From NCBI GenBank assembly GCA_046482545.1, contig JAWOEX010000035.1, positions 128,001 to 192,000 of the forward strand: a stretch of DNA of 64,000 nt, given 5' to 3'. Made by a program: the position numbers and the translations under genes. The notes under the pieces were generated by a model. It made no database searches and was not told the DNA's origin. It saw only the letters and a program-made list of their open reading frames with translations. Each line of letters opens with the position of its first letter. The stretch's first letter is position 1. The DNA comes from Candidatus Thorarchaeota archaeon. Its GTDB lineage: Archaea > Asgardarchaeota > Thorarchaeia > Thorarchaeales > Thorarchaeaceae. Below, in pieces: positions 335 to 15,012 of the stretch.

Positions 335-1900
335 GTGTTGGTACAGGACAAACATATTGTGGCTACAGTCGCTATTATTTTCCTTCTATCTGGAACAATT
401 CTATTTGTTTCCTGGTCCCTTGCTCCCAAGCGCCACCCTCCAACCGTTACTGTTTCGGGCGCGCATACCCTCAAGAAGGATGATTACAGCCTTACTTTGA
501 GAGCAAAGAGTGTAAATATCTCGATAGCTCTTGCTTGGAATAAATCTACAGGATGGGGATGCTATTCAACAACTATAACGAATGTTGCTACAGACCGCAT
601 TGTGACACAATCTCAATCTGAACTTCAAATCAGCATACTGAATAGAACCACAATGCATATTGATGTATGTACACCCGCCCAAGAAGTTAGCATTCGTCTA
701 TCTATGCCTTCAGAATCACAATTCAGTTTTCTTGTGTTTAGTGATTCGCAAGGTTATCAAGGCGGTTTAAACGAAATAGCATCTATTATTCAAGAAAAAT
801 CACCAGCTTTTGCTATCCATTGTGGTGATTTGACACCATTTGGACGGGAATACCAATTCGAAGAAGTATACGAAGCACTTCAGAATATCAGCATACCCGT
901 TTTCACAACAGAAGGCAACCACGATGTCCGGCTCGATGGTGCGAGCACCTATGCTAAACGGTTTGGTAGTCCTACATATTCCTTCGATTATTCAAATTGT
1001 CACTTCGCCATTGTCAATTCGTCAAACTATACTGTTTCATCCAAGGAACTCAATTGGCTTGATGAAGATCTCTCATCATCAGAGAAACCAGTGAAGTTTG
1101 TCTTTACCCATATTCCACCGTTTGATCCTCGACCAAATAGTACTCACAACATGACAAACCAGACAAGCGCAAACCGTTTTATGGACATCGTCGAGAAGAA
1201 CAATGTTACAACTATATTCACTGGCCATATACATATCTATAACAGTACGATTAGGAATAACACACGTTACATAATTTCAGGAGGGGCCGGTGCACAACTC
1301 GCTGCTGATGCTAAGCATGGTGGTTTTCATCATTTTATCAATGTCACAGTATCAAACTCGGATGTATCTGCCCAGTCAATCGAGCTTTCCGTTCCCATAC
1401 CACATTCTGGAAAAATCATAATCCAGAATATTAATGATGCGCTTGAACTATCTCTGCAGGATATCTTGTATCTTCCTGAGACTGAAGGTTACAGCTCGTT
1501 TCAGAACAACTTCGGCAATTGGCGTGGCCAAGGGGTGTATACTGGCACAGCAGTAGCAAATCTTGTAGAATTGATAGGCGGCATGAAACCGAACGATATC
1601 TTGCAAATAGCATCTTCTGATGGGTATTACCAGAATTTCTCATACAGTAATGTCTATCCTAACAGCTCATGGCGCGAAATCCAAGGCAGCATGATTTTGG
1701 CCTACTCATACAATGATACTGCTGTTCCGGAATGGGGCGAAGGTATGCGGATTGTAATGATTCCACCAGATGGAAAATACAGCAATGAGGATTGTCTTGC
1801 TACCTCTTGTCCCGGTATGGGCTGTGATGTATATCTCTCCGCCGGATCGAGATGGCTCAAATATGTGGCTTCAATAGAGGTGATACAAGATAATGAATGA
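335..1900 (+). CDS. Membrane-anchored calcineurin-like metallophosphoesterase with a C-terminal sulfite-oxidase-like (Oxidored_molyb fold) domain
   Basis: N-terminal TM helix; motifs DSQ, GDLT, GNHD, FTH, GHIH; C-terminal YTGTAV...ASSDGY...WLKYVASIEV; many NxS/T sequons. Confidence 0.8.
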   Translation: MLVQDKHIVATVAIIFLLSGTILFVSWSLAPKRHPPTVTVSGAHTLKKDDYSLTLRAKSVNISIALAWNKSTGWGCYSTTITNVATDRIVTQSQSELQISILNRTTMHIDVCTPAQEVSIRLSMPSESQFSFLVFSDSQGYQGGLNEIASIIQEKSPAFAIHCGDLTPFGREYQFEEVYEALQNISIPVFTTEGNHDVRLDGASTYAKRFGSPTYSFDYSNCHFAIVNSSNYTVSSKELNWLDEDLSSSEKPVKFVFTHIPPFDPRPNSTHNMTNQTSANRFMDIVEKNNVTTIFTGHIHIYNSTIRNNTRYIISGGAGAQLAADAKHGGFHHFINVTVSNSDVSAQSIELSVPIPHSGKIIIQNINDALELSLQDILYLPETEGYSSFQNNFGNWRGQGVYTGTAVANLVELIGGMKPNDILQIASSDGYYQNFSYSNVYPNSSWREIQGSMILAYSYNDTAVPEWGEGMRIVMIPPDGKYSNEDCLATSCPGMGCDVYLSAGSRWLKYVASIEVIQDNE

Positions 1901-2948
1901 ATCAGAAGAGCATTTCTTAGGCACAAGAGAAATAGCTACAGTTGCGATTTTAAGTGCATTAGGTGGAAGCCTAAGTACGTTCGTCGGATATTTGGGAAAT
2001 CTGGTCAATCTTGCACTTGGTGTTCCATTTGGTGCCGGGCAGTTCATGGCCGGTCTTCACGTTTTCTGGATTGTATTGATGAGGCTTATTGCCTCCAGAC
2101 GGGGAGTTGGAACCTTCGGTGGTTTTCTGAAAGGCTCAGTAGAATTCTTCACAGGTAGCACTCACGGTATAGTAATTATTCTTATTTCACTTGTTCAAGG
2201 TGTCATAGTTGATTTTGCGGGAGAGGCGGGTGGTAACCCCCAAGAGGCTCAATCAAGTAATCAAATTGTCTGGTGGCTTTTTGCTGGACTGTCCTCAGCA
2301 GCTAATGTCATTGTCTTCCAGATTGTATACTTTTCTGGCGCTCCTTGGATTTACCTTGCGGCAATTACAGCTCTAGCCTTCTCCTCAGGCGCCATTTTTG
2401 CTGGCTATTTCGCTTGGCAAACCATGTCCTTTATACAAGATATAGGAGTCACCACTATTCCTGCTGGGACTCTCTCTTCTTCACAATCACCCATCTACCG
2501 AAATCTCCCTGCTGCGCTTTTCATCACTTTTCTCATTATGGGGTCAGTCTACTATGGAATATTCATTGCCAACCCCTTTGCCGATCCTTATACCTGTGAG
2601 ATAACTGGAGAGGTTGCTAATCCTTTCACGTATCATCCTTCAAATTTTATACATCAGAAGATAACAATCGAAGCAGAACTTCAAGGTGCCTATACGCATA
2701 TCCCTCCGAAGAATTATACTGGTGTCCCTCTAAATGTGTTGCTTGAGCAAGCTAATCCCTTACCCGAAGCTGCTACTGTCAGAATAGAGGCAAAAGATGG
2801 TTACTCAGTTGAATTTGACTTATCTTCTGTCCTCGCTGATGACAGATTAATACTCACGGAGGAAGAGAATTCAGGCCTCTGGTTGATTGCAGCTGAATAT
2901 GATGGCTCATATTGGGTACACAAGGTTGCAACAATTCGTGCGACTTAG
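1893..2948 (+). CDS. ECF transporter S component fused to a C-terminal sulfite-oxidase-like domain
   Basis: TREIATVAILSALGG N-terminus and ~6-7 TM helices; C-terminal YTGVPLNVLL...AKDGY...WVHKVATI; upstream of ecfA/ecfT. Confidence 0.8.
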   Translation: MNESEEHFLGTREIATVAILSALGGSLSTFVGYLGNLVNLALGVPFGAGQFMAGLHVFWIVLMRLIASRRGVGTFGGFLKGSVEFFTGSTHGIVIILISLVQGVIVDFAGEAGGNPQEAQSSNQIVWWLFAGLSSAANVIVFQIVYFSGAPWIYLAAITALAFSSGAIFAGYFAWQTMSFIQDIGVTTIPAGTLSSSQSPIYRNLPAALFITFLIMGSVYYGIFIANPFADPYTCEITGEVANPFTYHPSNFIHQKITIEAELQGAYTHIPPKNYTGVPLNVLLEQANPLPEAATVRIEAKDGYSVEFDLSSVLADDRLILTEEENSGLWLIAAEYDGSYWVHKVATIRAT

Positions 2949-2951
2949 GAG

Positions 2952-4412
2952 GTGAATCATTCTTTGCTCGAAGCACAGGGCCTTGAGTTCGCATATACTG
3001 ACTCAACTCAGGTACTCCGTTCAGCTGATATTTCAATACGAAAAGGCGATTTGGTATTATTAACTGGATCTACAGGTTCCGGCAAATCTACTCTAGCCTT
3101 GTGTCTTTCAGGGCTTATTCCCCGTTCTATTCACGGTGAGTTGGCTGGTTCCATTAGAATAGATGATGTCGACATTTCGACTTTGAGCATGTCTGAAATC
3201 TCAAGAAGAGTCGCAATGGTCCAACAGGATACAGAAGGTCAATTGGCAACTTTACAAGTTCAAGATGAAGTTGCTTTCGGTCCAGAGAATTTCACCATAC
3301 CGGAAGGCGAAATACTGAATCGGGTTGAAGATTCCCTTAACGCAGTAAATTGCGAACATCTCCGCCATCGTTCAACCAATGCACTATCTGGAGGCGAAAA
3401 ACAACGAGTTGTAATTGCCTCTGTTTTGGCGTGTGAACCCGACTATTTGATTTTAGATGAACCTACTTCCAATTTGGATCCTCGTGGAGTTTCAAGATTG
3501 CAAACCATTATTCAAGACTTGAAAGAAAGGGGCGTCGGTATTCTTTGTATCGAGCATAAAGTTACCCCTCTGATAAATCAGGCAGACGAAATTCTTGAGA
3601 TGAGGGATGGCCAAATAACTACACACCAACCTCAAAAGGTAGAGTACCAAATTGAAAACCCTTGTCGAATAACAGAATCTGGCACAACGCCTGTAATTTC
3701 AATAGACGATGTTTCCTTTTCATATGAATCAAGACCTGCAATCGATGAAATATCACTGAATTTCTATTCAGGAGAAATCATCGCGGTAATGGGTGACAAC
3801 GGCTCCGGGAAAACAACTCTCTTGTACTTAGCTGCAGGTCTTCTAGAACCCGACTCAGGTATTTCATATCTTGACGGTAAACAAGTTTCAAAACTTGACA
3901 CCCAACAAATTGCTTCTTCTGTCGGATTTGTTTTTCAGAATCCGAACAATCAGATATTTGAAAGCACTGTATGGGCCGAACAGACTTTGGTTGCAGATTT
4001 CCTACCTATTGAGATCCAGCCATTTCTGGAACGTGCAAGAAGACTCCTTACTCAAACGTCTCTTATCTCGATGAAAGAACGAAACCCGTTTACCTTGAGT
4101 CATGGGCAGAAAAGACGCTTGAATATAACATCTGTTACAGCTCACCAACCACGAGTATTCCTATTAGATGAACCATTTGTTGGACAAGACAAGAATGGGG
4201 AAGAATTTGTGATTCGCACAGTTCTTAACAAAGCTGAGCATGCTGGTACTTGCTTGGTAGTTACGCATAATACAGAATTTGTTCAAAGATACTGTAATAG
4301 AATAATTTTCCTGAAAGAAGGCAAGCTTCTTCTCGACGGCCCTCCAAAGAAGGTGTTTCAACAATTAGAGCAACTAGGCCGGAAAAACTACCTGCCGGAG
4401 TGGAATAACTAG
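2952..4412 (+). CDS. ecfA: ECF transporter duplicated ATPase (EcfA-A')
   Basis: Two ABC domains: GSTGSGKS/LSGGE/LILDEP and GDNGSGKT/LSHGQ/LLDEP; VAFGPEN and FQNP ECF signatures. Confidence 0.93.
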   Translation: MNHSLLEAQGLEFAYTDSTQVLRSADISIRKGDLVLLTGSTGSGKSTLALCLSGLIPRSIHGELAGSIRIDDVDISTLSMSEISRRVAMVQQDTEGQLATLQVQDEVAFGPENFTIPEGEILNRVEDSLNAVNCEHLRHRSTNALSGGEKQRVVIASVLACEPDYLILDEPTSNLDPRGVSRLQTIIQDLKERGVGILCIEHKVTPLINQADEILEMRDGQITTHQPQKVEYQIENPCRITESGTTPVISIDDVSFSYESRPAIDEISLNFYSGEIIAVMGDNGSGKTTLLYLAAGLLEPDSGISYLDGKQVSKLDTQQIASSVGFVFQNPNNQIFESTVWAEQTLVADFLPIEIQPFLERARRLLTQTSLISMKERNPFTLSHGQKRRLNITSVTAHQPRVFLLDEPFVGQDKNGEEFVIRTVLNKAEHAGTCLVVTHNTEFVQRYCNRIIFLKEGKLLLDGPPKKVFQQLEQLGRKNYLPEWNN

Positions 4413-5246
4413 ATGAATCGAAATATTGGCTATGTAAATCGGGACAGCCCCATTCATAGACTCAATCCTGCCGTGAAGTTATTTAGCCTTGTTTCCGTGC
4501 TAGTAGCGACCATCATACTGTCTAGATGGTATATCACTTTTCTTCTACTAGTTGGTGTCATTATTGCATTCAAAATAGGTAGAGTTCCATTGAACCTTGC
4601 TGCTGACAGAACCAGATTTCTGATTACCTTTTCTGTTTTAATACTCGTTGTGCAGTTAATAGCAGTACAAAATGGCATGGTTATTTTCTATCTATTTCCT
4701 ACAGTTGAGGGAATTGGTCCGTTCTTTCCTGTAACAACTTTCGGTCTACAAAGAGGGCTAACATTTTCATTGAGGTTCATGTTGATTATCTTCTCAAGCA
4801 TGCTGTTCGTGGCTGTAACGGATCCCACACTCCTTGCTTACTCACTCACCGACTTGGGTATCCCTTATCGCTATAGTTTCGCACTAGTTATAGCTCTTCG
4901 TTTTGTTCCCTTTTTCGATATGGAAATGGACTCTGTTCGCATGGCTCAACGCTCTCGTGGGGTTTCTCCCCAAATTGGACGCCCCTCTAAACTACTGAGA
5001 ACGATTAGAATGACTTTCTATCCATTACTTGTATCTGCTTTCTCCAAGGCCAATTCTCTGACTATGTCAATGGATGGCAGAGGCTTTGGATATAATACGA
5101 CTCGTACTTATATTCGGAAGTCAACGTGGAAAAAAACAGATTGGGTAGTTTTGATGTTTTCCATCGCTTTTCTAATTGCTAGCCTTCTTCTTGTACTGTG
5201 TTTCTCCCACATATTCAAATTGGCGTACGAATACGGTTTCTACTAA
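4413..5246 (+). CDS. ecfT: ECF transporter T component
   Basis: SPIHRLNP, ALRFVP, AQRSRG and MDGRGF motifs. Confidence 0.93.
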   Translation: MNRNIGYVNRDSPIHRLNPAVKLFSLVSVLVATIILSRWYITFLLLVGVIIAFKIGRVPLNLAADRTRFLITFSVLILVVQLIAVQNGMVIFYLFPTVEGIGPFFPVTTFGLQRGLTFSLRFMLIIFSSMLFVAVTDPTLLAYSLTDLGIPYRYSFALVIALRFVPFFDMEMDSVRMAQRSRGVSPQIGRPSKLLRTIRMTFYPLLVSAFSKANSLTMSMDGRGFGYNTTRTYIRKSTWKKTDWVVLMFSIAFLIASLLLVLCFSHIFKLAYEYGFY

Positions 5247-5404
5247 GTTCCGGATCGAGTTTCTGATACAAGCCCCTGCAAGGCCTCGTTAACACTTGAC
5301 CTTTAATCCTTCACCATCACATTTGGCCATGATTTGGAGCATAACTCAAGGCACACACTCAATGTCATCACGAAGATGTCTAATTCCTGATAACCCATTT
5401 CTTA

Positions 5405-5600
5405 CAGTTGAGTGAGTGAACCCAACTGAGGAAACTTCTGTGTTCCACCCTTCCCTTGCCAGCGTCGCCGCCCCCACGGTACCCGCAGGCCCATGAGTCA
5501 GCAGGGGCTTTGTCCGCGTTCATCGGAACAGGGTTCCTCCTGCGGTCCAGGCTTCTGTCTCCTGTCGTCATTCCGGGTCATCACTCCCGGTGACAGCGAG
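5405..5600 (-). ncRNA. Putative TnpB omega-RNA (reRNA) scaffold; 5' end probably inside tnpB
   Basis: GC-rich structured tract just 3' of tnpB: ccgcagg/cctgcgg pair (5483-5489 with 5539-5545), gcccctgc/gtgggggc pair, terminal hairpin cagttgggt-tcactc-actcaactg; position expected for TnpB guide RNAs. Confidence 0.5.
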
Positions 5601-7254
5601 GTCTTCCACAGTTCTTGCCACGGCGTGGTCATGATCACCCACCTCAGCCTTGTCACCGTAGCTGAGGAGGTCCGTCTGGACATGGTGAACAGCCGCGGAC
5701 TCTCCGGAACCTGATGAAGTCCCTTGTTTGGAGAGTAAGGACTTCCGTCGAGAAGCACAAGGCTTCCCTCGGGCTTTCGGCCGCGCGCTTCGCGCTACTG
5801 CGCTAGCCCACTTGCCTAGTCCTCTCACGTCATGCAGTGATGAAGTGAGCGTAATGAGTCTTCCAGCGATGTTGATAGCGCCGTTCCTGTCTGCGTTGCA
5901 CCGGTTGCCACAGCTCGGGCAGATGAACCGGTCCTGCCGGGGTCTCCTGCCCTTGTTGCCACACTTCCAGCACATGATCGAGGTCCAGTTCTCTGGCACC
6001 ACCCTGAAGCGTGCATCCTTGCCTTCGACCGGCCAGCCAAGCTGCTCAAGATTGTGCTTGAGGCTCTCTGTTATCCGTGCGAACGCCCAGGAGTGGATCA
6101 TCCCCCGGAACCTGCGGCCTTTGTAGTTGCCGCGTCGAGCAGTGTACCTGATGTTCTTGAGCCGACCGATAGCCACGTAGAGGGTGTATCGCTCAGACAG
6201 CTCGGTGATATAATCGAGCATTTGACTGACCATGAACCGGTCATACTCTTTTGCTACACGGTATCTCTTTCCCTTCAGCTTTCGAAGTCGTGCTGCTATC
6301 TCATCATGAGGGTTGCCGTTGTTCTTCTGGGTATGCATCTTGTGCTGGAGCTGGGCAACCTGATCATCCAGTTGCTTGATTCGTTTGACCTTGTCTTCCT
6401 GCACCAAGTACCTGGTCTCCCGCACTTTCTGGGGAGTAACCAAACTTGTACAGGCCGCCTTCTCGATACCGAGGTCGATACCAAGAACAGCCTCTGGAAG
6501 GTCGTCATCAGGTGGCTCTGGCTTGTCGATTCTGACCGCAAAGGTCACCCACCATTTGCCTCGTCTATCCGTGAAAATCTGTAGGGCTTTGATTTCACCT
6601 CTTGAAAATTGGTTGGTATGGAACGGCGATACGTTGAGCGGAATAAGCAACCGGTCATGGACCCTTCGTCCTTCAGGTACTGAGTCCAGGGAATCCCGGA
6701 GGTCGAGCCACCACAGTGCGGTATGGGTATCATTCTCAATGAGCTTGAATCGTTGAGAAAACACCCAACGCGGAATCCGTCGAGACGAAGATAGTCTCCT
6801 GCAGGGGCGCGATGCCCTCCTGCCGTTCTTGTTCCTCAGCTCGAGGTAACTCTCGTACATCTGGACGGCTGTCTGTCTGCACTCAATCACTTCATTTGCT
6901 GACATCCGGGGAAACCGTTCCTTCATGTCATGGGGAACGGCCAGCCTCTGTTCGTACCCCTCTTTGACCTTGATTGCAGTCATGGTGAGCTTGTCCAGCT
7001 TACCGGCATCGATTTTCGTGCTTTTTTTTCCTTTCAGCAACTTATCCTCGTGTTCTTCGATGACTCCAAGGAAGGCATGGATGGCCCGGGTGTCTCGACC
7101 AACTATCTGCCTGAGTCGCTGCTGGGTCCGGTGTGTCATCACTGAGTACTTGATTGGCACCTTGACACTGATTGTTGTTCCCTGGGACCGGCCCATCGTC
7201 ATCGCCTTACGATATTTAAATCTCTAACCTGTTTCTGGCTAGTTGAGTTCACTC
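5414..7254 (-). mobile_element. Stand-alone TnpB element (no tnpA) bounded by imperfect 14-bp inverted repeats
   Basis: gagtgaacccaact (5414-5427) versus the reverse complement of 7241-7254, gagtgaactcaact (13/14 match), bracket tnpB; GC-richer than the flank. Confidence 0.55.
5568..7202 (-). CDS. tnpB: TnpB / Cas12f-like RNA-guided RuvC nuclease (544 aa) with rearranged catalytic site
   Basis: RuvC-I VLGIDLG; RuvC-II region VAIGRL; PENWTSIMCWKCG...FICPSCG Zn finger; RuvC-III NADRNGAINIA. Confidence 0.9.
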   Translation of the reverse strand: MTMGRSQGTTISVKVPIKYSVMTHRTQQRLRQIVGRDTRAIHAFLGVIEEHEDKLLKGKKSTKIDAGKLDKLTMTAIKVKEGYEQRLAVPHDMKERFPRMSANEVIECRQTAVQMYESYLELRNKNGRRASRPCRRLSSSRRIPRWVFSQRFKLIENDTHTALWWLDLRDSLDSVPEGRRVHDRLLIPLNVSPFHTNQFSRGEIKALQIFTDRRGKWWVTFAVRIDKPEPPDDDLPEAVLGIDLGIEKAACTSLVTPQKVRETRYLVQEDKVKRIKQLDDQVAQLQHKMHTQKNNGNPHDEIAARLRKLKGKRYRVAKEYDRFMVSQMLDYITELSERYTLYVAIGRLKNIRYTARRGNYKGRRFRGMIHSWAFARITESLKHNLEQLGWPVEGKDARFRVVPENWTSIMCWKCGNKGRRPRQDRFICPSCGNRCNADRNGAINIAGRLITLTSSLHDVRGLGKWASAVARSARPKARGKPCASRRKSLLSKQGTSSGSGESAAVHHVQTDLLSYGDKAEVGDHDHAVARTVEDLAVTGSDDPE

Positions 7255-7319
7255 CCCGGTTTGTTTTGAGAGAGGTTATTGAACTCATACTTCTATGTAT
7301 CATTATGATATTTAAATCT
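7211..7319. repeat. 13-bp direct repeat gatatttaaatct (7211-7223, 7307-7319) containing a TATA-like TTTAAATA on the - strand
   Basis: Exact repeat seen; it flanks the tnpB-proximal inverted repeat and a tgagttca/tgaactca hairpin. Confidence 0.6.
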
Positions 7320-7702
7320 ATTAAGCAAATTCAAAATAAAGCATTATGAAGTCCTTGTATCTAAAAAGAGCCGATATAAGACCTTATTATTAATTCTATT
7401 TGGGCTAGAAATACATATAAAGGATAATGGATTTCATGTGCATAAATGACCAAAAAAGACGGACAGAGGGCACATCAGCGCTATTTTCGGTAGAGTTTGT
7501 AGATACAATGATATTCCTCTGGTGGGTGAAGTACTCTGGTACTAGCCTGCCATACTGAATTGATCTGGTTTTGTCCCTGTTTGAGAAGACGAGGAGAGGA
7601 ACCTGAGGCCCACTATCGATTTCTGGAAAGTATTTTCGCGTGATATAGCTACTAGGAGTACTGCCACATCAGGAAATCGCACATTTCCACCCACCGTTTT
7701 AT

Positions 7703-7850
7703 GCATGGGTGTACATAAGAAGCTCTTCCACAATCATCCCTTCTGTACGGGTGTACGTAGGAGACCTTCCGGGACCGCCTCGTTCCGTACGGGTGTACAT
7801 AAGAAGCTCTTACGCAATAATGCCTCCTGTACGGCTGTACATAGTACTGT
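7703..7850. repeat. Four-unit tandem repeat, exact 42-bp period, core GTACGGGTGTACATAAG
   Basis: Units start at 7703, 7745, 7787 and 7829; units 1 and 3 are nearly identical (84-bp higher-order repeat). Confidence 0.9.
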
Positions 7851-7865
7851 TGTGAGGGGTGACAG

Positions 7866-8540
7866 ATGACTAGAAAACGGACCGTTTTCCCATCAGCAGC
7901 CAAGGTGAAATCCGGGGACGTGACTGACCCCATTGAGATCTACGTCAAGTCCATGCTTTCCAAAGGCAAGGAAGATAGGACGGGAATACTCATCGAGTCT
8001 GTATGGGGTGTGGAATACGAAACGAAAACAGTCCGTTTCGTCCGTGGAAACCTGATCACCCGTTTCACAAAACTCCCAATCCCCCCGTCTGATGTCCCAG
8101 ATCGGCACCTCCGGTCAGCAAGCGAAGTTGCCAGAGAGATATTCGACCTTGAGAGGTTCGATGGACTGGTTCTCACTGAAGCCCCTGACTTGAGTTCCGT
8201 GTATAAGGCGGAACGGGACTCTGATTCGAAGGTCTTCACAAGTGAACAGGACGCCCACATCTGGTGCTCGCTCATAGATGCCGATAGTACGCGAATCGTC
8301 CCCGTCCAGTCGAGTAAAGTTCCCCTAAGAGAGGCTCGAAAGAATAGCGAAGATGTCCGGAATACAGTCCTCCGGCTCCTCTACCAGGCCCTGGCCGGGT
8401 TGGAAGCCCTGGATACGCTGCATTCGATGCGGCAACGTGGCATAGGGGCAGCCGAGCTGGAGGAGATATGGACGAGGGTGTTCACTAAGAGACAGTTCCC
8501 CGACAAGCTTGCCAAAGTACTACATCGAGGGCAGCACTAG
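7866..8540 (+). CDS. Hypothetical protein (224 aa); probably the N-terminal part of the downstream giant gene
   Basis: ATG preceded by gaggggtga; overlaps the next ORF's open frame at 8446-8540. Confidence 0.65.
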   Translation: MTRKRTVFPSAAKVKSGDVTDPIEIYVKSMLSKGKEDRTGILIESVWGVEYETKTVRFVRGNLITRFTKLPIPPSDVPDRHLRSASEVAREIFDLERFDGLVLTEAPDLSSVYKAERDSDSKVFTSEQDAHIWCSLIDADSTRIVPVQSSKVPLREARKNSEDVRNTVLRLLYQALAGLEALDTLHSMRQRGIGAAELEEIWTRVFTKRQFPDKLAKVLHRGQH

Positions 8541-11500
8541 AGCAAATCCGGTGGTGGATGATGTGAACGATGGGTACCCAAAGAACCCCAGCAAGGTGCT
8601 GGGTAGGGCCATCTTCACCGGCCTGTCCACCCTCGTCCAGCTTGCTCGTAAGCGGGTGACCAAGCAACCGAAAGTCCAGCGACTGGTCGCAGGCATCGAG
8701 GAGATGTGGCAGGAAACGCGGGACGAACTGGAAGCGTTGAAAGATATACGTCCTCATGATTTTTCGCCAGTTCAGTCACGGGAGCCCAACATGCGGAAGA
8801 GCTTCCTTGGTGTGCTCTGGTGGACGACATGGTCGTATGGTAACACGGAGTTCAAGCGGGTGTACAGCTGGCAGGAGGGTACCATCGGCCCCCTCAACGA
8901 GCTCCTCAACTTCGCTGGGGCAGAGCTCCGTCTTGTGGCTATCACCCGCTATCCCTTCCCTGAGCCCAACTATTACCAGGTCTGGAAAACTCCAGATGAG
9001 CGGCGCATCGTTGTGGACACAAGTGTCACCAAGAAGGTCAGAGTGGAGAACTATGAGTCGGGATATGTGAAGGCGGGATACCCGGCCACATCCGGTTCTC
9101 CCCGGATCCTGCTCTGCCACCCGAGCCTGCCGAGTCTCGACTTTGTGGATATGATTCGTGCACATGTGGTCGAACTCATCCGACAGTGCTTCATCCACAA
9201 CGTCCCAAAGAAAGATGCCCAGCGGTATATCCGGCTGCTCATCTACAGGCTGAGGCCCTTCTTGGACTGGGTCTACACGGATGGGGAGTACGGGCGCAAG
9301 CATTTCCATCCCGGGGCGACTCAGGAACTGATGAAAATCGTCAAAGAAATCCGAGCTGTCTATTCCCGAACCACGGTAAAGGTCGCTCGGTTGACCCACC
9401 AGCTCGACAAGGAGGATGGGGATGAAAGCGCTGAGAAGTTTAGGTCCCCGACCGTCGCCGACATCGTACAACAGCTCAAGGCTGCATTTGAACGGGATTC
9501 CTCTGACCAAACCAAACACATCGTCCGCAGCATCCTGAAACGCATCAAGCTGAGTGACCTCAAGGATGATGAGCTAGGGGCGTTCGTTGGCCAGATGATG
9601 CCTAAGAATGAAAAAGGGGAGCAGGACGACAGCGAAAAGAAGGACCGGGAGAGTGCCCTGACAGACAAGGACGCAGAGGATTTCGTAGAAAAGATTGAGA
9701 CAATGTCGATGCGGCAGGGTAACTACTGGCACAAATTCTTGTTCAGTGACATGTACCACCCGTACTCGCTGAAAGCGGCTGTCTTCTATGGAGACAGGGG
9801 CCTGGACAAACCTGATGACACGCTTATAGCCGCAGAGGTTCCTGTAAGCGGCACAGAAGGAGCGGGGCAGGCAGATATCGTGGTGTTTGTCCGGCGGGAT
9901 GTAGGTGACCGCGCAGTATGGACACCTGTGATGCTCCTTGATGTCAAGACGAAGACTGGGATAGACTGGGAACTCTTGGGTGTACGACCCAGGTCGAAAA
10001 AGGACGCGAGAGTTCCGTATTTCTACCTCAGCAAACGCCCCCTGAGCCAGGATGAATGGGAACACATCGTAGCGACGGCACCTTCGAAAAGGAGTCGTGG
10101 ACAGCTCGAAGCATATGAGACGAATCTCCTGCAGGAGTACAAGAGTATCATTGCAGACGCCGAAGCCCCAAAGAAGCTGTATCGGGGTGTCGTGCTCGTC
10201 GATGCAAGTGAGGACAGGTTCACCGTTTTTGACGCACTGCCCGGGTTGATTCGGGAAGTCCTCGACAGGGTCAGTTATGTGCCGGGTTCACCCAACGCTC
10301 CTGTCGCATATACGATCGCAATGTCCGATGGCCCAGAGCAAGCGACGAGCCCACATATCGCACTCGTCTTGGAGGACACAACAGGGCCCTCCTCCCTGCT
10401 GGGAAGGACCATGCCACTTACGGAAATCGAAGGGACTGACCCCTTCGCATCACGAAAGAAAGACGATACCCTGTTCACCCTCTACCTCTCCGTAGGCTCA
10501 TCTATTTCAGCCGGGCCATCAGCAGCCTGGGTCTCAAGGAACTGGCACCTGCTGAATCACCTTCGTGAGCAGTTCGAGCACACCGGGGACACCCCGGACG
10601 TTGTGTGGGTAGACCTGCTTGGTGATCTCCCAACGCAGGAGCTCGCCATAACACGACTGAGGCTTGACATGCAGTGGTTGTCCCCGGAATGGGAAGAGCA
10701 TATCCAGGGACTCAGAGATCTCTTCGAGGATATCCGTATCATCGACCTCAGGGACAAGGTGATTGACGCCGTCTTTGGGACAGACAAAGATACCATCTAT
10801 AACCTGAAAGTTGCACTACGGGAAGAGCTGTCCGCAAAGGAAACGCAGCTGGTGGTCCTCGATGGCTGGGCAAACCTCCGCGATATGAGCCCTCGGCGTT
10901 GTACCAACACGCTCGATGCCCTTGAGTATGCATTGGTCGAGTGCCTGAAAGGCACGGCTGACGAGGTGGTCTGGCTAGACAGGCCAGTCCCGTCGGCAAA
11001 GACATCAGCGATGTATCAGAAACGGAAGATGAATCCCCTACCCCACGACTCTCCGCGGCAACGCCTGCTGGACGAGATCATCTGGAACCTGCCGACCCCG
11101 CCCAAAGTCCTGGGCTGGAAATCACCCCTGCGGGAAGATGTCCGGGTGATAGTCCAGGACACGGCGACCAATGTCCCTCCCTGGAAGACCAGTATCTTCG
11201 TACCACACCTCACAGCTTGGGCAGAACGTTTCCGGGGATACTCGCGAGAGGACAGGACGGTGAGCTTTGAGGAGGTACGTGAGGCACAGCTCCAACCCAT
11301 GTATGGACGAGGCGTGACGCTCAGCTCTGTCTCCTGCAATGTCTCAGCTCTTCCGCCATACACCACTGAGGATGTCTGTGCCGACGCTGCCTTGCTGGCG
11401 CCGAGCCTTGAGCGGCGAGATGAAGACACGGCTGAAACAGAATACTCTGAGACAGACTGGTTTGAAGTCCAAAGGATGGAAACGGCGGTTCCAAGAGGAT

Positions 11501-13476
11501 ACGACAGTGACGGACGCGAACTACTCAAGCACATGACGTTCAAAGTCCTCGGTAACGCAGAACCAGTGGACGAAGATGAAAGGAAGGAGGGCGACCCAGG
11601 CCCTCTCTACACCTCACCTGATACCATCACCAGGGGCTGGAGACGGTGGAAGCCGAGTGTTGAAGAACAGCAGGAGAAGGAGCGGGACGACAGCACACGG
11701 GGAGTATTGAGGCCGCCCCCGGTCGCTCCTACTAGGTCGAAGTACATCGATACGTTCGAGACGCGGAGGCAGGAGCTCGTCCGCTTTCGCAATACTCTGC
11801 GGTTTGTGAGGAAGATGACTCCTCAGCATGAGACTGGGCAATGGAAAGAGCTACTCAATGAGCTTGCAGAGATTGCAGAGGCGGCGTTTACATCAAGGGG
11901 ATTGACATGGACACCTCTCGAAGTATTGCAAGACATCAAGCGCAAGCTCCAAAGGAACTCTCAATCGAAATCCATGTGGAACCTCTTGCAAGGAGTACGG
12001 GAAGACATCCTTGCCGAGTTACACCTGCACATCCGGACAACAATTGCCGACATCAGGAAACACAATCCGGAGATCTTGTCCCTCTACGGCAATCACTTCG
12101 TCCTGCTATTGCTTGCACTTGAGAGGAGGCAGTTGATTCAGAACCAAGGGCCTGTGCTTAACATCCTTTGGCGCGTGTTCTGGTGCTGGCAGCTTATACA
12201 GATGGGATTTGCAACAAAAGAGCAAGAGCTCGTTACTACAAAATACGATGTCCACGCCATCTGGTCGAACTTGGTCTGGAGAGCCAAGATACTCGCAGAA
12301 ACGATCCGCTTTACCCGGCCAACGGATGTGGTTAGGCGTGCGGTAAGGGTCTCAAATGAGCAGGAAAACGATTTCTGGATGTTCATCGAGGACGCACCGG
12401 GGAGCGACAGGTTTGAGGTGGCGTATATCCCCCTGGAAGGCAGGAGGAACTTCTGGGGATGGCACCCAGCTGAAACAGACCTGAAATTGTTGGCACATAA
12501 AGCTGAATGGACAGGGGCAACGGACGAAGCAAACTATGTTATCACGAGGGTACAGGGGAACGACATCCTGTGGAAGGCGTACCTCGATTCCACGATTGGT
12601 GAATTCTGGAACCCCATTTGCATCATAGAGTACGGGCCGCCCCCACCCGACAGGCCTTTTCCGATACGATGGGTGAAGAAATCAACAGTGCCAAACGAAC
12701 TACGCTCCCTCTCTTCCCCGCCGTTTGACCTGAAAAGCCAGACACTCGAATACGAACGAATCAGGGGACTTCTCAAAGAAATCGAGGCATATAGTGACCG
12801 GGTGAAGGAGGTGGTATGCCGGTTGTCGCTCGACATGGACGAAAGGGCATATGAGATACAGTTCATCGATTCGTACAGAGGAGAGACGGTGGCTGTCCAT
12901 AAGGCCAAGCGGACAGCCGAAGTACTCCAAGTGCTGAGGGGGCCGTTGTCAGAGCAGGCGCCCTTCGAGACCGAGGATGGTCAGGTCTTGATATGGGACA
13001 CGCGCCAGGACGTGGAGTATACTGATGTCGAGACAGAGGACCGGGTGTTCAGTCTGAGTATGCTCAGGCCCTTTGTGCACAGGAACAAGGTATTGACAGG
13101 AACCATTGTCATCCCGAGGACGGCAGAGGAGCTGCTGGAGAGCTCTGTAGGTGAAGAAGTGAGACTCGTTTTTACCCCTGAAAGGATGTTGGAAGGTTAT
13201 CCAGAAGATAGCACTGGCTGGAGAATATGGTTTAATGAATTCGATTTCGGAGAAACACTGCTGAAATTGGATGATATACGGTTGAGCATCTATGATGTCG
13301 GCCACCTGATCGAGAGCAGGCAACTCTATGACAGTGATACCAGGAAACTGCATCCCATGTATGTCATCTTGAACAGGGTCAAGGACTTCTCTACTCGGGC
13401 TGGCCTCTCGGAGTTCCCGTTGTTCGACGAGAAGCTCAGAGAGAGTAAAGAGCCCAAGCCGCCCTCGAGGAGCTGA
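8509..13476 (+). CDS. Giant multidomain hypothetical protein with a RecB-like PD-(D/E)XK nuclease and a degenerate RecA/KaiC-like domain
   Basis: 1655-codon ORF; AEVPV...GQADIV...LLDVKT...QLEAY nuclease motifs; VVWVDL and LVVLDG strands without an intact Walker A. Confidence 0.75.
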   Translation: MPKYYIEGSTRANPVVDDVNDGYPKNPSKVLGRAIFTGLSTLVQLARKRVTKQPKVQRLVAGIEEMWQETRDELEALKDIRPHDFSPVQSREPNMRKSFLGVLWWTTWSYGNTEFKRVYSWQEGTIGPLNELLNFAGAELRLVAITRYPFPEPNYYQVWKTPDERRIVVDTSVTKKVRVENYESGYVKAGYPATSGSPRILLCHPSLPSLDFVDMIRAHVVELIRQCFIHNVPKKDAQRYIRLLIYRLRPFLDWVYTDGEYGRKHFHPGATQELMKIVKEIRAVYSRTTVKVARLTHQLDKEDGDESAEKFRSPTVADIVQQLKAAFERDSSDQTKHIVRSILKRIKLSDLKDDELGAFVGQMMPKNEKGEQDDSEKKDRESALTDKDAEDFVEKIETMSMRQGNYWHKFLFSDMYHPYSLKAAVFYGDRGLDKPDDTLIAAEVPVSGTEGAGQADIVVFVRRDVGDRAVWTPVMLLDVKTKTGIDWELLGVRPRSKKDARVPYFYLSKRPLSQDEWEHIVATAPSKRSRGQLEAYETNLLQEYKSIIADAEAPKKLYRGVVLVDASEDRFTVFDALPGLIREVLDRVSYVPGSPNAPVAYTIAMSDGPEQATSPHIALVLEDTTGPSSLLGRTMPLTEIEGTDPFASRKKDDTLFTLYLSVGSSISAGPSAAWVSRNWHLLNHLREQFEHTGDTPDVVWVDLLGDLPTQELAITRLRLDMQWLSPEWEEHIQGLRDLFEDIRIIDLRDKVIDAVFGTDKDTIYNLKVALREELSAKETQLVVLDGWANLRDMSPRRCTNTLDALEYALVECLKGTADEVVWLDRPVPSAKTSAMYQKRKMNPLPHDSPRQRLLDEIIWNLPTPPKVLGWKSPLREDVRVIVQDTATNVPPWKTSIFVPHLTAWAERFRGYSREDRTVSFEEVREAQLQPMYGRGVTLSSVSCNVSALPPYTTEDVCADAALLAPSLERRDEDTAETEYSETDWFEVQRMETAVPRGYDSDGRELLKHMTFKVLGNAEPVDEDERKEGDPGPLYTSPDTITRGWRRWKPSVEEQQEKERDDSTRGVLRPPPVAPTRSKYIDTFETRRQELVRFRNTLRFVRKMTPQHETGQWKELLNELAEIAEAAFTSRGLTWTPLEVLQDIKRKLQRNSQSKSMWNLLQGVREDILAELHLHIRTTIADIRKHNPEILSLYGNHFVLLLLALERRQLIQNQGPVLNILWRVFWCWQLIQMGFATKEQELVTTKYDVHAIWSNLVWRAKILAETIRFTRPTDVVRRAVRVSNEQENDFWMFIEDAPGSDRFEVAYIPLEGRRNFWGWHPAETDLKLLAHKAEWTGATDEANYVITRVQGNDILWKAYLDSTIGEFWNPICIIEYGPPPPDRPFPIRWVKKSTVPNELRSLSSPPFDLKSQTLEYERIRGLLKEIEAYSDRVKEVVCRLSLDMDERAYEIQFIDSYRGETVAVHKAKRTAEVLQVLRGPLSEQAPFETEDGQVLIWDTRQDVEYTDVETEDRVFSLSMLRPFVHRNKVLTGTIVIPRTAEELLESSVGEEVRLVFTPERMLEGYPEDSTGWRIWFNEFDFGETLLKLDDIRLSIYDVGHLIESRQLYDSDTRKLHPMYVILNRVKDFSTRAGLSEFPLFDEKLRESKEPKPPSRS

Positions 13477-13624
13477 CAGGGTGGTAGATATGAAGGGCGC
13501 AGATTTGTTAAGCTCATCACATAACCTACAATCCCAACGTAGGTGCCCGAACTCCTGCTATACGGGTAAGATATCGACTTGGTGTATGCAGGATGGTCTA
13601 TCTCCCACACGAGGTAACAGGAAA

Positions 13625-13677
13625 TTTTACAGAAATCTTACACTTTTATACCCTGATTTTTTAGGATTTTTGTAAAA
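13625..13677. repeat. ~16-bp imperfect inverted repeat (possible terminator or element end)
   Basis: ttttacagaaatctta ... taggatttttgtaaaa. Confidence 0.5.
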
Positions 13678-14034
13678 CTTAACCATTCCTGAGCTGGCTA
13701 ACATGCCCACGTAGCTGTTCGATGTTCGTCTTGATTGCTCTTGACACTTCTTGTCTGATGCTTTCCTACTCAACTTCTTCATCTTGTTTGATTCTTCGTC
13801 GACGGAGTATAATAGCATCATATTTGATATTCCTGACATTAGAGACATGTGTGCTTCTTCCCATTTCACTTCCGATTCTTCAAGACCCCATCACAAAGAA
13901 TCCTGTATCTAGGATTGCTTATGCGAGGGCTTTCCATGCTTCTAGCTCCCTATGATTAGAAGTGAATATCACCAAGCATCTTAAGGGCACTCTATTCGCG
14001 GGTATCTCATGGAGACATTCTCTGAGAATCACGG

Positions 14035-14860
14035 ATGTGCAAAGAAGTGAGGGACATCGATATCGAGTTGAACAGAAGAGCCTATCTTGCTGGGGGACTG
14101 GTCAATGGCACCGTTAAAGTACACACTGACGAATACTTTGACTGCGATGATTTCTATGTATACGTCCGAGGCGACGACAAGACCAGTATTACTGTTGGTA
14201 GTGGAAAACGTCACCGGACCTACCTCGGTTATACAAAACTCGTTGAGCACAACTTGGATATCCTGAACATACGAAGATTCCGGGCAGGAAAGACCCCTAT
14301 GAAATTCTCTTTTCTCCTACCAAGGGGGCTGCCACCAACTTACAAAGGACCCGGAGCTAGAATCAAGTATTGGATAGAAGCGAAAGCTGAGGTTTCGTGG
14401 TCTCTGAATCCTGAAGCGCAGAAAGAATTCTGGGTATTTTCGCCGGGAGCTAGAGCGACAACAGCTAATCATAGAGCATCCGATGAATACGAAGAGCAGA
14501 AGCCATTGGAGATTCGTATAGATGAAACCAGCACCCCCTTGAGAATGAGATACCTTTCCAGTTCCAAGTATTTAGTGGGATTGAAGCTTGAAGTATCAGA
14601 GCGGAGCTTATCCATTGCCAAGATTGGAGAACACGAAATCGTTCCCGGGGAACAGAGAGAACTCTTATACACAAAGAAACGCTAGAATCCAAGTTTAAAA
14701 GGAGTCGGTGAATCGATTGGAGTATTCCTACTCAACAGCATTTTCCGGCCACTTTCAAGACGCGACTCATTACCAGCTGGTATTTTCTTGAGGTTACACT
14801 AGACCGACCATGGCGTTTCGTCAAATCTACTTGCCTTGTAGTGGTCCCCTTTTTTCAAGC
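14035..14860 (+). pseudogene. Arrestin/Vps26-fold (alpha-arrestin-like) gene, disrupted
   Basis: Arrestin-N pattern (AYLAGGLVNGTV...FSFLLPRGLPPTYKG...IKYWIEAK...W); the arrestin-C motif (IPTQQHFPATFKTRLITSWYFLEVTLDRPW) continues in a shifted frame after ~14535 with TGA at 14589 and 14709. Confidence 0.75.
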
Positions 14861-14905: not shown

Positions 14906-15012
14906 TGGTCGGGACGGCCGGATTTGAACCGGCAGCCGACGGATTTCTGGATGCGATTCCAAAGGAATCACTTACTACAGTCCGTTGCTCTGCCAGATTG
15001 AGCTACATCCCG
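14906..15012 (-). tRNA. tRNA-Tyr(GTA) with a 30-nt intron at 37/38 (14945-14974); CCA encoded
   Basis: Full cloverleaf, C1:G72 pair, TTCAAAT T-loop. Confidence 0.95.

Follow-up and report, generated by a model that had tools for sequence, protein, structure and literature searches.

Mapped ends, an apparent 6-bp target duplication and a probable self-directed guide in a likely aCas1–TnpB transposon from a Thorarchaeota genome

The name aCas1 reportedly goes back to Makarova et al. in 2020. TnpB proteins linked to Asgard variants of Cas1 (Cas1H-Asgard-1 and -2), falling into two groups, were described in the main text of Altae-Tran et al. (2023; PMC10691335, section 9). That text proposes aCas1 as the transposase of a likely transposon family, reports flanking repeats and a GTTCACTCA motif downstream of tnpB, and takes the hypervariable stretch next to this motif as a possible guide. 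Here we analyse a locus within 64,000 nucleotides (the window) of contig JAWOEX010000035.1 from a Candidatus Thorarchaeota archaeon, in which a tnpB gene lies divergent from the gene of a giant protein. An earlier reading of the letters (the original prediction) had offered it as an undescribed system, either a new mobile element with the giant protein in the place of TnpA or an RNA-guided defence module. Judged by its predicted folds, gene pairing, motif and repeats, the element appears to belong to the published aCas1–TnpB family, whose loci that main text already reports as likely transposons, and the system is not undescribed. It shares with the published account the Asgard host, a diverged Cas1 together with TnpB, the two TnpB groups, the flanking repeats and the GTTCACTCA motif. 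It departs from the guide proposed there in that GTTCACTCA looks here like a docking site for a repeat supplied in trans. Gene context had been the basis for proposing the family as a transposon; to this the present genome adds exact ends, a target motif, empty sites and mini-elements of natural origin. In the literature searched, which included the text of PMC10691335 without its supplement, we found no account of ends, target duplication, empty sites, miniatures or a leader guide. We consider the locus to be, probably, an autonomous or recently autonomous aCas1–TnpB transposon.

The element resembles casposons (PMC9939771) in having a predicted Cas1-fold integrase as its only recombinase, inverted end motifs and direct repeats, and in the tRNA targeting seen in some relatives. 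Unlike casposons it has no family B DNA polymerase (PolB), and its apparent duplication is 6 bp as against ~15 bp. Its inverted motifs are short and subterminal, its Cas1 domain is part of one chain with a nuclease, a RecA fold and a further ~600 residues, and it carries TnpB. With the IS200/IS605 and IS607 elements it shares an omegaRNA that overlaps the 3′ end of tnpB and abuts the element end, as well as gene-less derivatives that keep this RNA. Unlike these elements it lacks a Y1 or serine TnpA, has a 6-bp duplication and a tnpB divergent from the putative transposase gene, and its empty sites lack the inferred target-adjacent motif (TAM).

The element spans 5391 to 13686 (8.3 kb) and is bounded on each side by the hexamer TCCTGA (Table 1); it is thus wider than the block of 5405 to 13476 first delimited. 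TCTTACA is found at both ends in inverted orientation and at about equal distance from the hexamer. Between the ends lie only tnpB, an open reading frame (ORF) termed orfA and the giant gene. The GC content of 53%, compared with 42.5% and 45% either side, bears out the GC-rich block of the original prediction, and the two lines quoted for it (34/60 and 23/60) are exact. Three genomes, each 96–99% complete, were compared: that of the window (G000) and two congeners (G001 and G002). The end matches in G000 include about 40 two-ended copies, mostly miniatures of ~550 bp, non-autonomous and multi-copy. Three further full giant–TnpB pairs are present on contigs C28, C20 and C23, and the four aCas1 paralogues are less than 30% identical. 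The left and right hexamers are equal in 17 of 20 canonical pairs (3.2 expected after shuffling), and non-canonical hexamers, for example TCTGTA, are repeated whole on both sides. Removing a copy and keeping one hexamer restores five long ORFs in frame. Orthologous empty genes align without gaps if exactly one TCNNGA hexamer is kept (three sites, two congeners), and the net gain over the empty site is 6 bp. Duplications of 8 bp or 12 bp were considered and rejected; the unit common to the copies is 6 bp. For the window copy, G001 has the empty site, and in G002 the element is missing there as well. Metagenome contigs gave no match to the exact empty site, and an orthologue of the C20 GNAT gene was not found. 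We note that host genes interrupted by miniature or full copies in G000 include those at C16:12126, C24:3120, C34:61294, C37:2267 and C20:228517.

Searches of G000, G001 and G002, all of which contain the miniature family, turned up no IS607 TnpA, and in G000 neither a serine nor a tyrosine recombinase was detected. The sole Y1 match in G000 (C24:6161) sits beside no element end, and no Y1 TnpA was found inside the window element. We therefore infer that aCas1 is likely the transposase, or mobiliser, of the element. The tyrosine recombinase family PF00589 has no match in G000 (98.9% complete) and is present in all 14 control genomes.

The fold of the giant protein was taken from AlphaFold models (mean pLDDT, a per-residue confidence measure, 84 and 77). 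On these models it is a Cas1 catalytic domain followed by a RecB/Cas4-type nuclease and a RecA fold with a degenerate Walker A motif. The latter two had been recognised in the original prediction, and both folds are indeed found; its statement that no integrase or cas gene is present does not survive the Cas1 catalytic fold of residues 19–275 with its conserved E92, H204 and D214. All 11 best structural matches to this segment are Cas1 or casposase (Z 9.2–12.7, root-mean-square deviation (rmsd) ~4, 156–195 residues aligned). Casposase 6opm gives Z 10.9 and rmsd 3.8 over 184 aligned residues, in the catalytic domain only. E92, H204, D211 and D214 are kept in 62–63 of 64 giant homologues; the motifs around E92, H204, D211 and D214 match the catalytic Glu, His and D-x-x-D of Cas1, a correspondence mapped by motif and not by superposition. 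The nuclease domain resembles MGME1, Cas4 and RecB-type nucleases (Z up to 9), and D456, K480 and the QxxxY motif are invariant. The RecA/Rad51 fold is matched with Z ~11 and a Foldseek E of 2e-5. Only 14 of the 64 homologues retain the Walker A lysine; the window protein has proline instead. The giant protein had no significant match in Pfam, NCBIfam, PADLOC or PDB sequences and received no name from Atlas searches. Co-folding of its residues 19–548 with residues 1–455 of TnpB scored 0.00, which counts neither for nor against an interaction.

Giant homologues, where named, bear Thorarchaeota or other Asgard names; in a 250-genome sample of the phylum they occur in 36 of the 59 genomes of the family and in two others. 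Pairing was surveyed for 83 giant genes with an intact start from 61 genomes, three of them at contig edges and one not examined. A divergent TnpB accompanies 77 of the 80 informative loci, and two loci have none. Fifty giant genes have a group 1 TnpB (~550 aa) within 2 kb and 27 have a group 2 TnpB (~720 aa). The original prediction had asked for repeated adjacency of the two genes and for an empty site in relatives; with 77 of 80 loci adjacent and G001 empty, its proposal of a mobile element in which the giant protein stands in for TnpA gains support, as it does from the ends, the 6-bp duplication and the further copies. The pattern named there as refuting, giant homologues never beside TnpB together with relatives that have the giant gene here but lack the segment 5414–7254, was not observed. 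The group 2 TnpBs at L031–L050 are ~700–760 aa long and retain the canonical RuvC-II Glu in their consensus. A tandem pair of group 1 tnpB genes stands behind one giant gene at L064:6645-10662 (G008:C6). Homologues of the giant protein were also seen in two genomes of another Asgard family (G164:C389, G164:C565 and G252:C547), two of them beside fragments of group 1 TnpB. Five elements (L056, L062, L063, L067 and G000 C23:124222) lie directly behind tRNA genes, and the first four have at their far end a diverged, att-like second tRNA 3′ half starting from the anticodon loop.

In the window TnpB the RuvC-II glutamate is replaced by glycine and an alternative glutamate is available. D243, G346, E404 and D438 are invariant in 26 group 1 proteins. 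This is the rearranged RIIr-type pattern, which the main text of PMC10691335 predicts to be active. A tnpB gene on the minus strand with a putative guide RNA had been foreseen, and a structured RNA does cover its 3′ end. Over 5371–5746, with a structure derived from the same alignment, 44 of 76 pairs show two-sided changes; none of 500 shuffles scored as high, and slid controls gave 11–15. No Rfam model matches this omegaRNA. The GTTCACTCA motif (5412–5421, minus strand) is near-invariant across 18 loci.

The leader of tnpB carries a repeat resembling that of a CRISPR RNA (crRNA) together with a spacer; the absence of a CRISPR array noted earlier holds, there being one repeat–spacer unit only. 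In the window the computed duplex of repeat and anti-repeat reaches −25.6 kcal/mol, compared with −14.2 for the cis arm. A pattern search matched the repeat in 45 of the 66 loci; on visual inspection most of the others have a variant and a few are truncated. Compensatory changes are observed in the computed pairings. Cognate repeat–omegaRNA duplexes average −23.9 kcal/mol against −20.1 for non-cognate ones, a difference that none of 10,000 permutations reached; in only 10 of 41 cases is the cognate repeat the top-ranking one. The spacer matches its own TATA region at 13.5 of 17 positions and those of other elements at 9.8 of 17 (permutation maximum 10.6). Identity is at least 0.81 at positions 1–13 and at most 0.40 from position 15. 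The sequence TT[AC]AT precedes 33 of 44 targets; among crude host promoters it occurs in 2 of 224, and next to the spacer itself it is lacking. Changes in spacer and promoter are concordant in 70 of 72 cases among the 18 nearest pairs, a figure that is partly circular, since a 9-nt match had been required of the loci beforehand; the unfiltered statistics are therefore preferred. Several group 2 loci (L031–L050) have TTGAT/TCAAG at the corresponding place before the promoter TATA box.

These patterns suggest that the leader unit probably serves RNA-guided autorepression by a short split guide. It seems to us improbable that the spacer is no guide but an additional TATA box or the duplicate of a protein-binding site. 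The matched stretch is AT-rich with a TATA motif, as such a site would be, and a hairpin of the leader itself hides part of the repeat. Set against this, positions that are 36–52% conserved among elements match at 88–98% within elements, and the match ends at 13–14 nt. Further, covariation links the repeat next to the spacer with the omegaRNA at a distance of 1.8 kb, and in L067 a change within the near-invariant motif is compensated. The original prediction had TnpB provide RNA-guided maintenance, classically by cutting of the empty site. The inferred TAM is present at 0–1 of 26 reconstructed empty sites, thus such cutting by an end-derived guide is unsupported unless the motif is only a promoter signal, and the conserved guide aims at the tnpB promoter. 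Searches for literature on TnpB in Thorarchaeota, TnpB autorepression or own-promoter targeting found nothing relevant.

Short guides acting on promoters have precedents. Tracr-L autoregulation of Cas9 is credited to Workman (2021, cited in PMC8730458). In it a short guide is said to direct Cas9 to a promoter. TldR is a nuclease-family protein that a short guide likewise leads to a promoter (PMC13565253). Unlike TldR, the window TnpB keeps the full rearranged triad (D243, E404 and D438), so any repression would be due to the short guide rather than to an inactive enzyme. The pairing of the omegaRNA with a separate repeat–spacer recalls the TranC/type V pairs of tracrRNA (trans-activating CRISPR RNA) with crRNA (Jin et al. 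2025, as cited in PMC13565253), the omegaRNA being apparently usable as a tracrRNA. The window element differs from the pairs cited there in having a single unit in the tnpB leader and no CRISPR array, in the choice of its own promoter as target, and in still residing within a mobile element. For an Asgard TnpB that is so far uncharacterised, the leader unit offers a guess at the TAM and a split guide of natural origin; it is also relevant to the splitting of omegaRNAs into tracrRNA and crRNA.

A plausible course of events can be outlined. The giant protein would bind the symmetric TCTTACA motifs, its PD-(D/E)XK domain would free the element ends, and the Cas1 domain would join the freed ends to a TCNNGA target staggered by 6 bp. 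The RecA fold, degenerate as an ATPase, may act as a DNA-binding or pairing scaffold. A single tnpB transcript could yield TnpB, and its 3′ end would give a tracrRNA-like omegaRNA and its leader a crRNA-like unit. TnpB loaded with the 13–14-nt leader guide would then bind its own TATA box without cutting, giving self-repression. We know of no explanation of casposon excision, for which a Cas1 domain fused to a nuclease is a direct model. A Cas1 integrase with so short a site would also provide a novel tool for insertion. The ends now mapped, together with the 6-bp duplication, the miniatures and the leader guide, open the mechanism to direct testing.

Several observations weigh against this account of an aCas1-driven transposon with a self-directed guide. 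The evidence for the mechanism is computational. The N-terminal beta (dimerisation) domain of Cas1 falls outside the structural alignment with the giant protein. Support for Cas1 at the sequence level is weak: Foldseek E is 0.15 or worse, PADLOC Cas1 matches appear in few members, and profile comparison with four Asgard Cas1 sequences gave an hhalign probability of 6%, yet with the E92 and N-x-L-L-N motifs aligned. TT[AC]AT overlaps the position of the archaeal transcription factor B recognition element (BRE) and may thus mark the promoter rather than act as a TAM. Even the most similar miniatures share no more than ~95% identity, so any present activity is putative. Nearest-neighbour miniatures have like central dinucleotides in 21 of 43 cases compared with 8.1 expected (p ~1.5e-4, three species), a sharing among related copies that plain random-target duplication does not predict and that hints, from sequence comparison, at core-matched rather than random insertion of miniatures. 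IS607 tnpA, whole or decayed, stands at the far end of 7 of 20 group 2 elements.

The dinucleotides would suit a different chemistry of the same enzyme, which we regard as possible though not favoured. The element would leave as a circle, keeping one hexamer at the junction, and re-enter by matching core to target, in the manner of site-specific recombination and perhaps with a homology check by the RecA fold; the ‘duplication’ would then be one host and one element-borne hexamer. In keeping with this, the right hexamer is canonical in 37 of 43 cases and the left in 27 of 43, L131 has TCAAGA on the left and the TCTTGA of its lineage on the right, and the tRNA-linked relatives L056, L062, L063 and L067 have their diverged second tRNA 3′ half. 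However, much of the signal comes from one large TCTTGA subfamily whose members, being kin, are not independent, and a paralogue-specific target preference with ordinary duplication would give an equal pattern. Only 3 of the 12 left/right mismatches agree with the right hexamer of the neighbour, and 1 with the left. A combined picture, in which a Cas1-driven, PolB-less transposon inserts by matching the 6-bp core from its last site while TnpB represses its own promoter through a split tracrRNA/crRNA-like guide, is speculative and rather doubtful as a whole. If true, it would unite Cas1, a Cas4-like nuclease, a Cas12 ancestor and a repeat–spacer unit in one mobile element.

The group 2 tnpA genes may reflect IS607 ancestry, and they keep a serine-recombinase explanation alive for that group. 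An IS607-like element would be moved by serine TnpA, in cis in some relatives and in trans or since lost here, with the giant gene as cargo. The co-orientation of tnpA with tnpB, the short repeated end motifs and the inherited central dinucleotide would suit a serine recombinase with a 2-bp overhang. For the window element we think this quite unlikely: none of 20 group 1 elements has tnpA, nor was IS607 TnpA found in the three near-complete genomes with the miniatures, TCTGTA and similar hexamers are whole on both sides, and near-invariant Cas1 catalytic residues are not needed in cargo. The tnpA carriers are L035 (807-1427), L039, L040, L041, L042, L034 and L050, in which tnpA converges on the giant gene. 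Least credible, and to our minds very far from likely, is the defence module, RNA-guided or nuclease-based, hitch-hiking in a mobile cassette. Two nuclease domains plus TnpB and the patchy distribution (36 of 59 genomes) would fit it. The giant protein has no PADLOC match, there is no CRISPR array, and the sole conserved spacer points at the element's own promoter. The ends also proliferate as gene-disrupting miniatures, the behaviour of a selfish element.

Table 1 Features of the aCas1–TnpB element and its surroundings, in window coordinates
Feature	Position	Strand	Remarks
Left hexamer TCCTGA (duplicated)	5385–5390	+	family consensus TCNNGA; orthologous empty genes with one hexamer
Left element end: 7 nt, then subterminal TCTTACA	5391–5406	+	86 matches in genome
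omegaRNA scaffold	5391–5823	−	overprints last ~85 tnpB codons, reaches element end; retained in miniatures
Anti-repeat: 5′ arm and loop of terminal omegaRNA hairpin	5414–5435	−	near-invariant GTTCACTC motif, named in main text of PMC10691335
tnpB, 544 aa, group 1	5568–7202	−	RuvC-I D243, G346 for RuvC-II Glu, alternative E404, C4 zinc finger, RuvC-III D438
Spacer in tnpB leader, 13 nt	7211–7223	−	identical to promoter stretch 7307–7319
crRNA-like repeat in tnpB leader	7224–7254	−	complementary to anti-repeat 5414–5435
Putative tnpB promoter: TTAAT (TAM-like, 7320–7324), then TATA-box-containing target	7307–7324	−	promoter role suggested by TATA motif
42-bp array, 3.3 copies	7707–7843		upstream of orfA; accessory
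orfA, 224 aa	7866–8540	+	no family; accessory
Giant aCas1 protein, 1,655 aa from TTG 8509 or 1,637 aa from GTG 8563	8509–13476	+	GTG start is the one in the protein collection
Cas1 catalytic (helical) domain, aa 19–275	8563–9333	+	predicted fold; E92, H204, D211, D214 conserved
PD-(D/E)XK nuclease, RecB/Cas4/MGME1 type, aa ~290–625	9376–10383	+	E443, D456, D/E478, K480, Q532-x3-Y536
RecA/Rad51-like fold, aa ~651–960	10459–11388	+	predicted fold; Walker A degenerate
Low-confidence linker and ~590-aa C-terminal region	11389–13476	+	structure model
Right element end: TCTTACA twice direct and once inverted, 7 nt from end	13620–13686	+	47 matches in genome
Right hexamer TCCTGA	13687–13692	+	comparison with copies and empty site
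tRNA-Tyr with ~33-nt intron, anticodon read as GUA	14909–15012	−	Rfam match; missed by ARAGORN

The region between the divergent genes is AT-rich (38% GC) and contains the 42-bp array, both as originally described. The array has no significant fold; L052 has two units and L053 two short related ones. The ~5.6-kb stretch described downstream is coding, as proposed, and consists of two ORFs rather than a single gene. The first of these, orfA, is seen in three elements only (the window, L052 and L053) and is a separate ORF in the latter two. It was considered as a frameshifted N-terminus of the giant protein and rejected, since none of the 64 giant homologues has an N-terminus that it matches; Atlas searches gave it no name. 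Another ORF of no known family (~206 aa) converges on the giant gene in one element subgroup (G000 C20:234823-235443, L065:895-1524 and L048:8764-9387).

The neighbours agree with the original prediction, namely ecfT/CbiQ on the left, a shortened arrestin gene on the right and the intron-bearing tRNA-Tyr. The tRNA-Tyr was rejected as target of the window copy, lying 1.2 kb outside the element. The left flank (335–5246) encodes a metallophosphoesterase-like protein, a membrane protein, a double ABC ATPase and CbiQ/EcfT, an energy-coupling factor (ECF)-type transporter cluster. On the right, the arrestin-like gene (14035–14685) encodes 216 aa compared with the 275-codon open frame of its G002 orthologue. 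A putative old inverted arrestin remnant shows up at 13697–13968 in the region compared with G001, solely as non-coding sequence that is shared.

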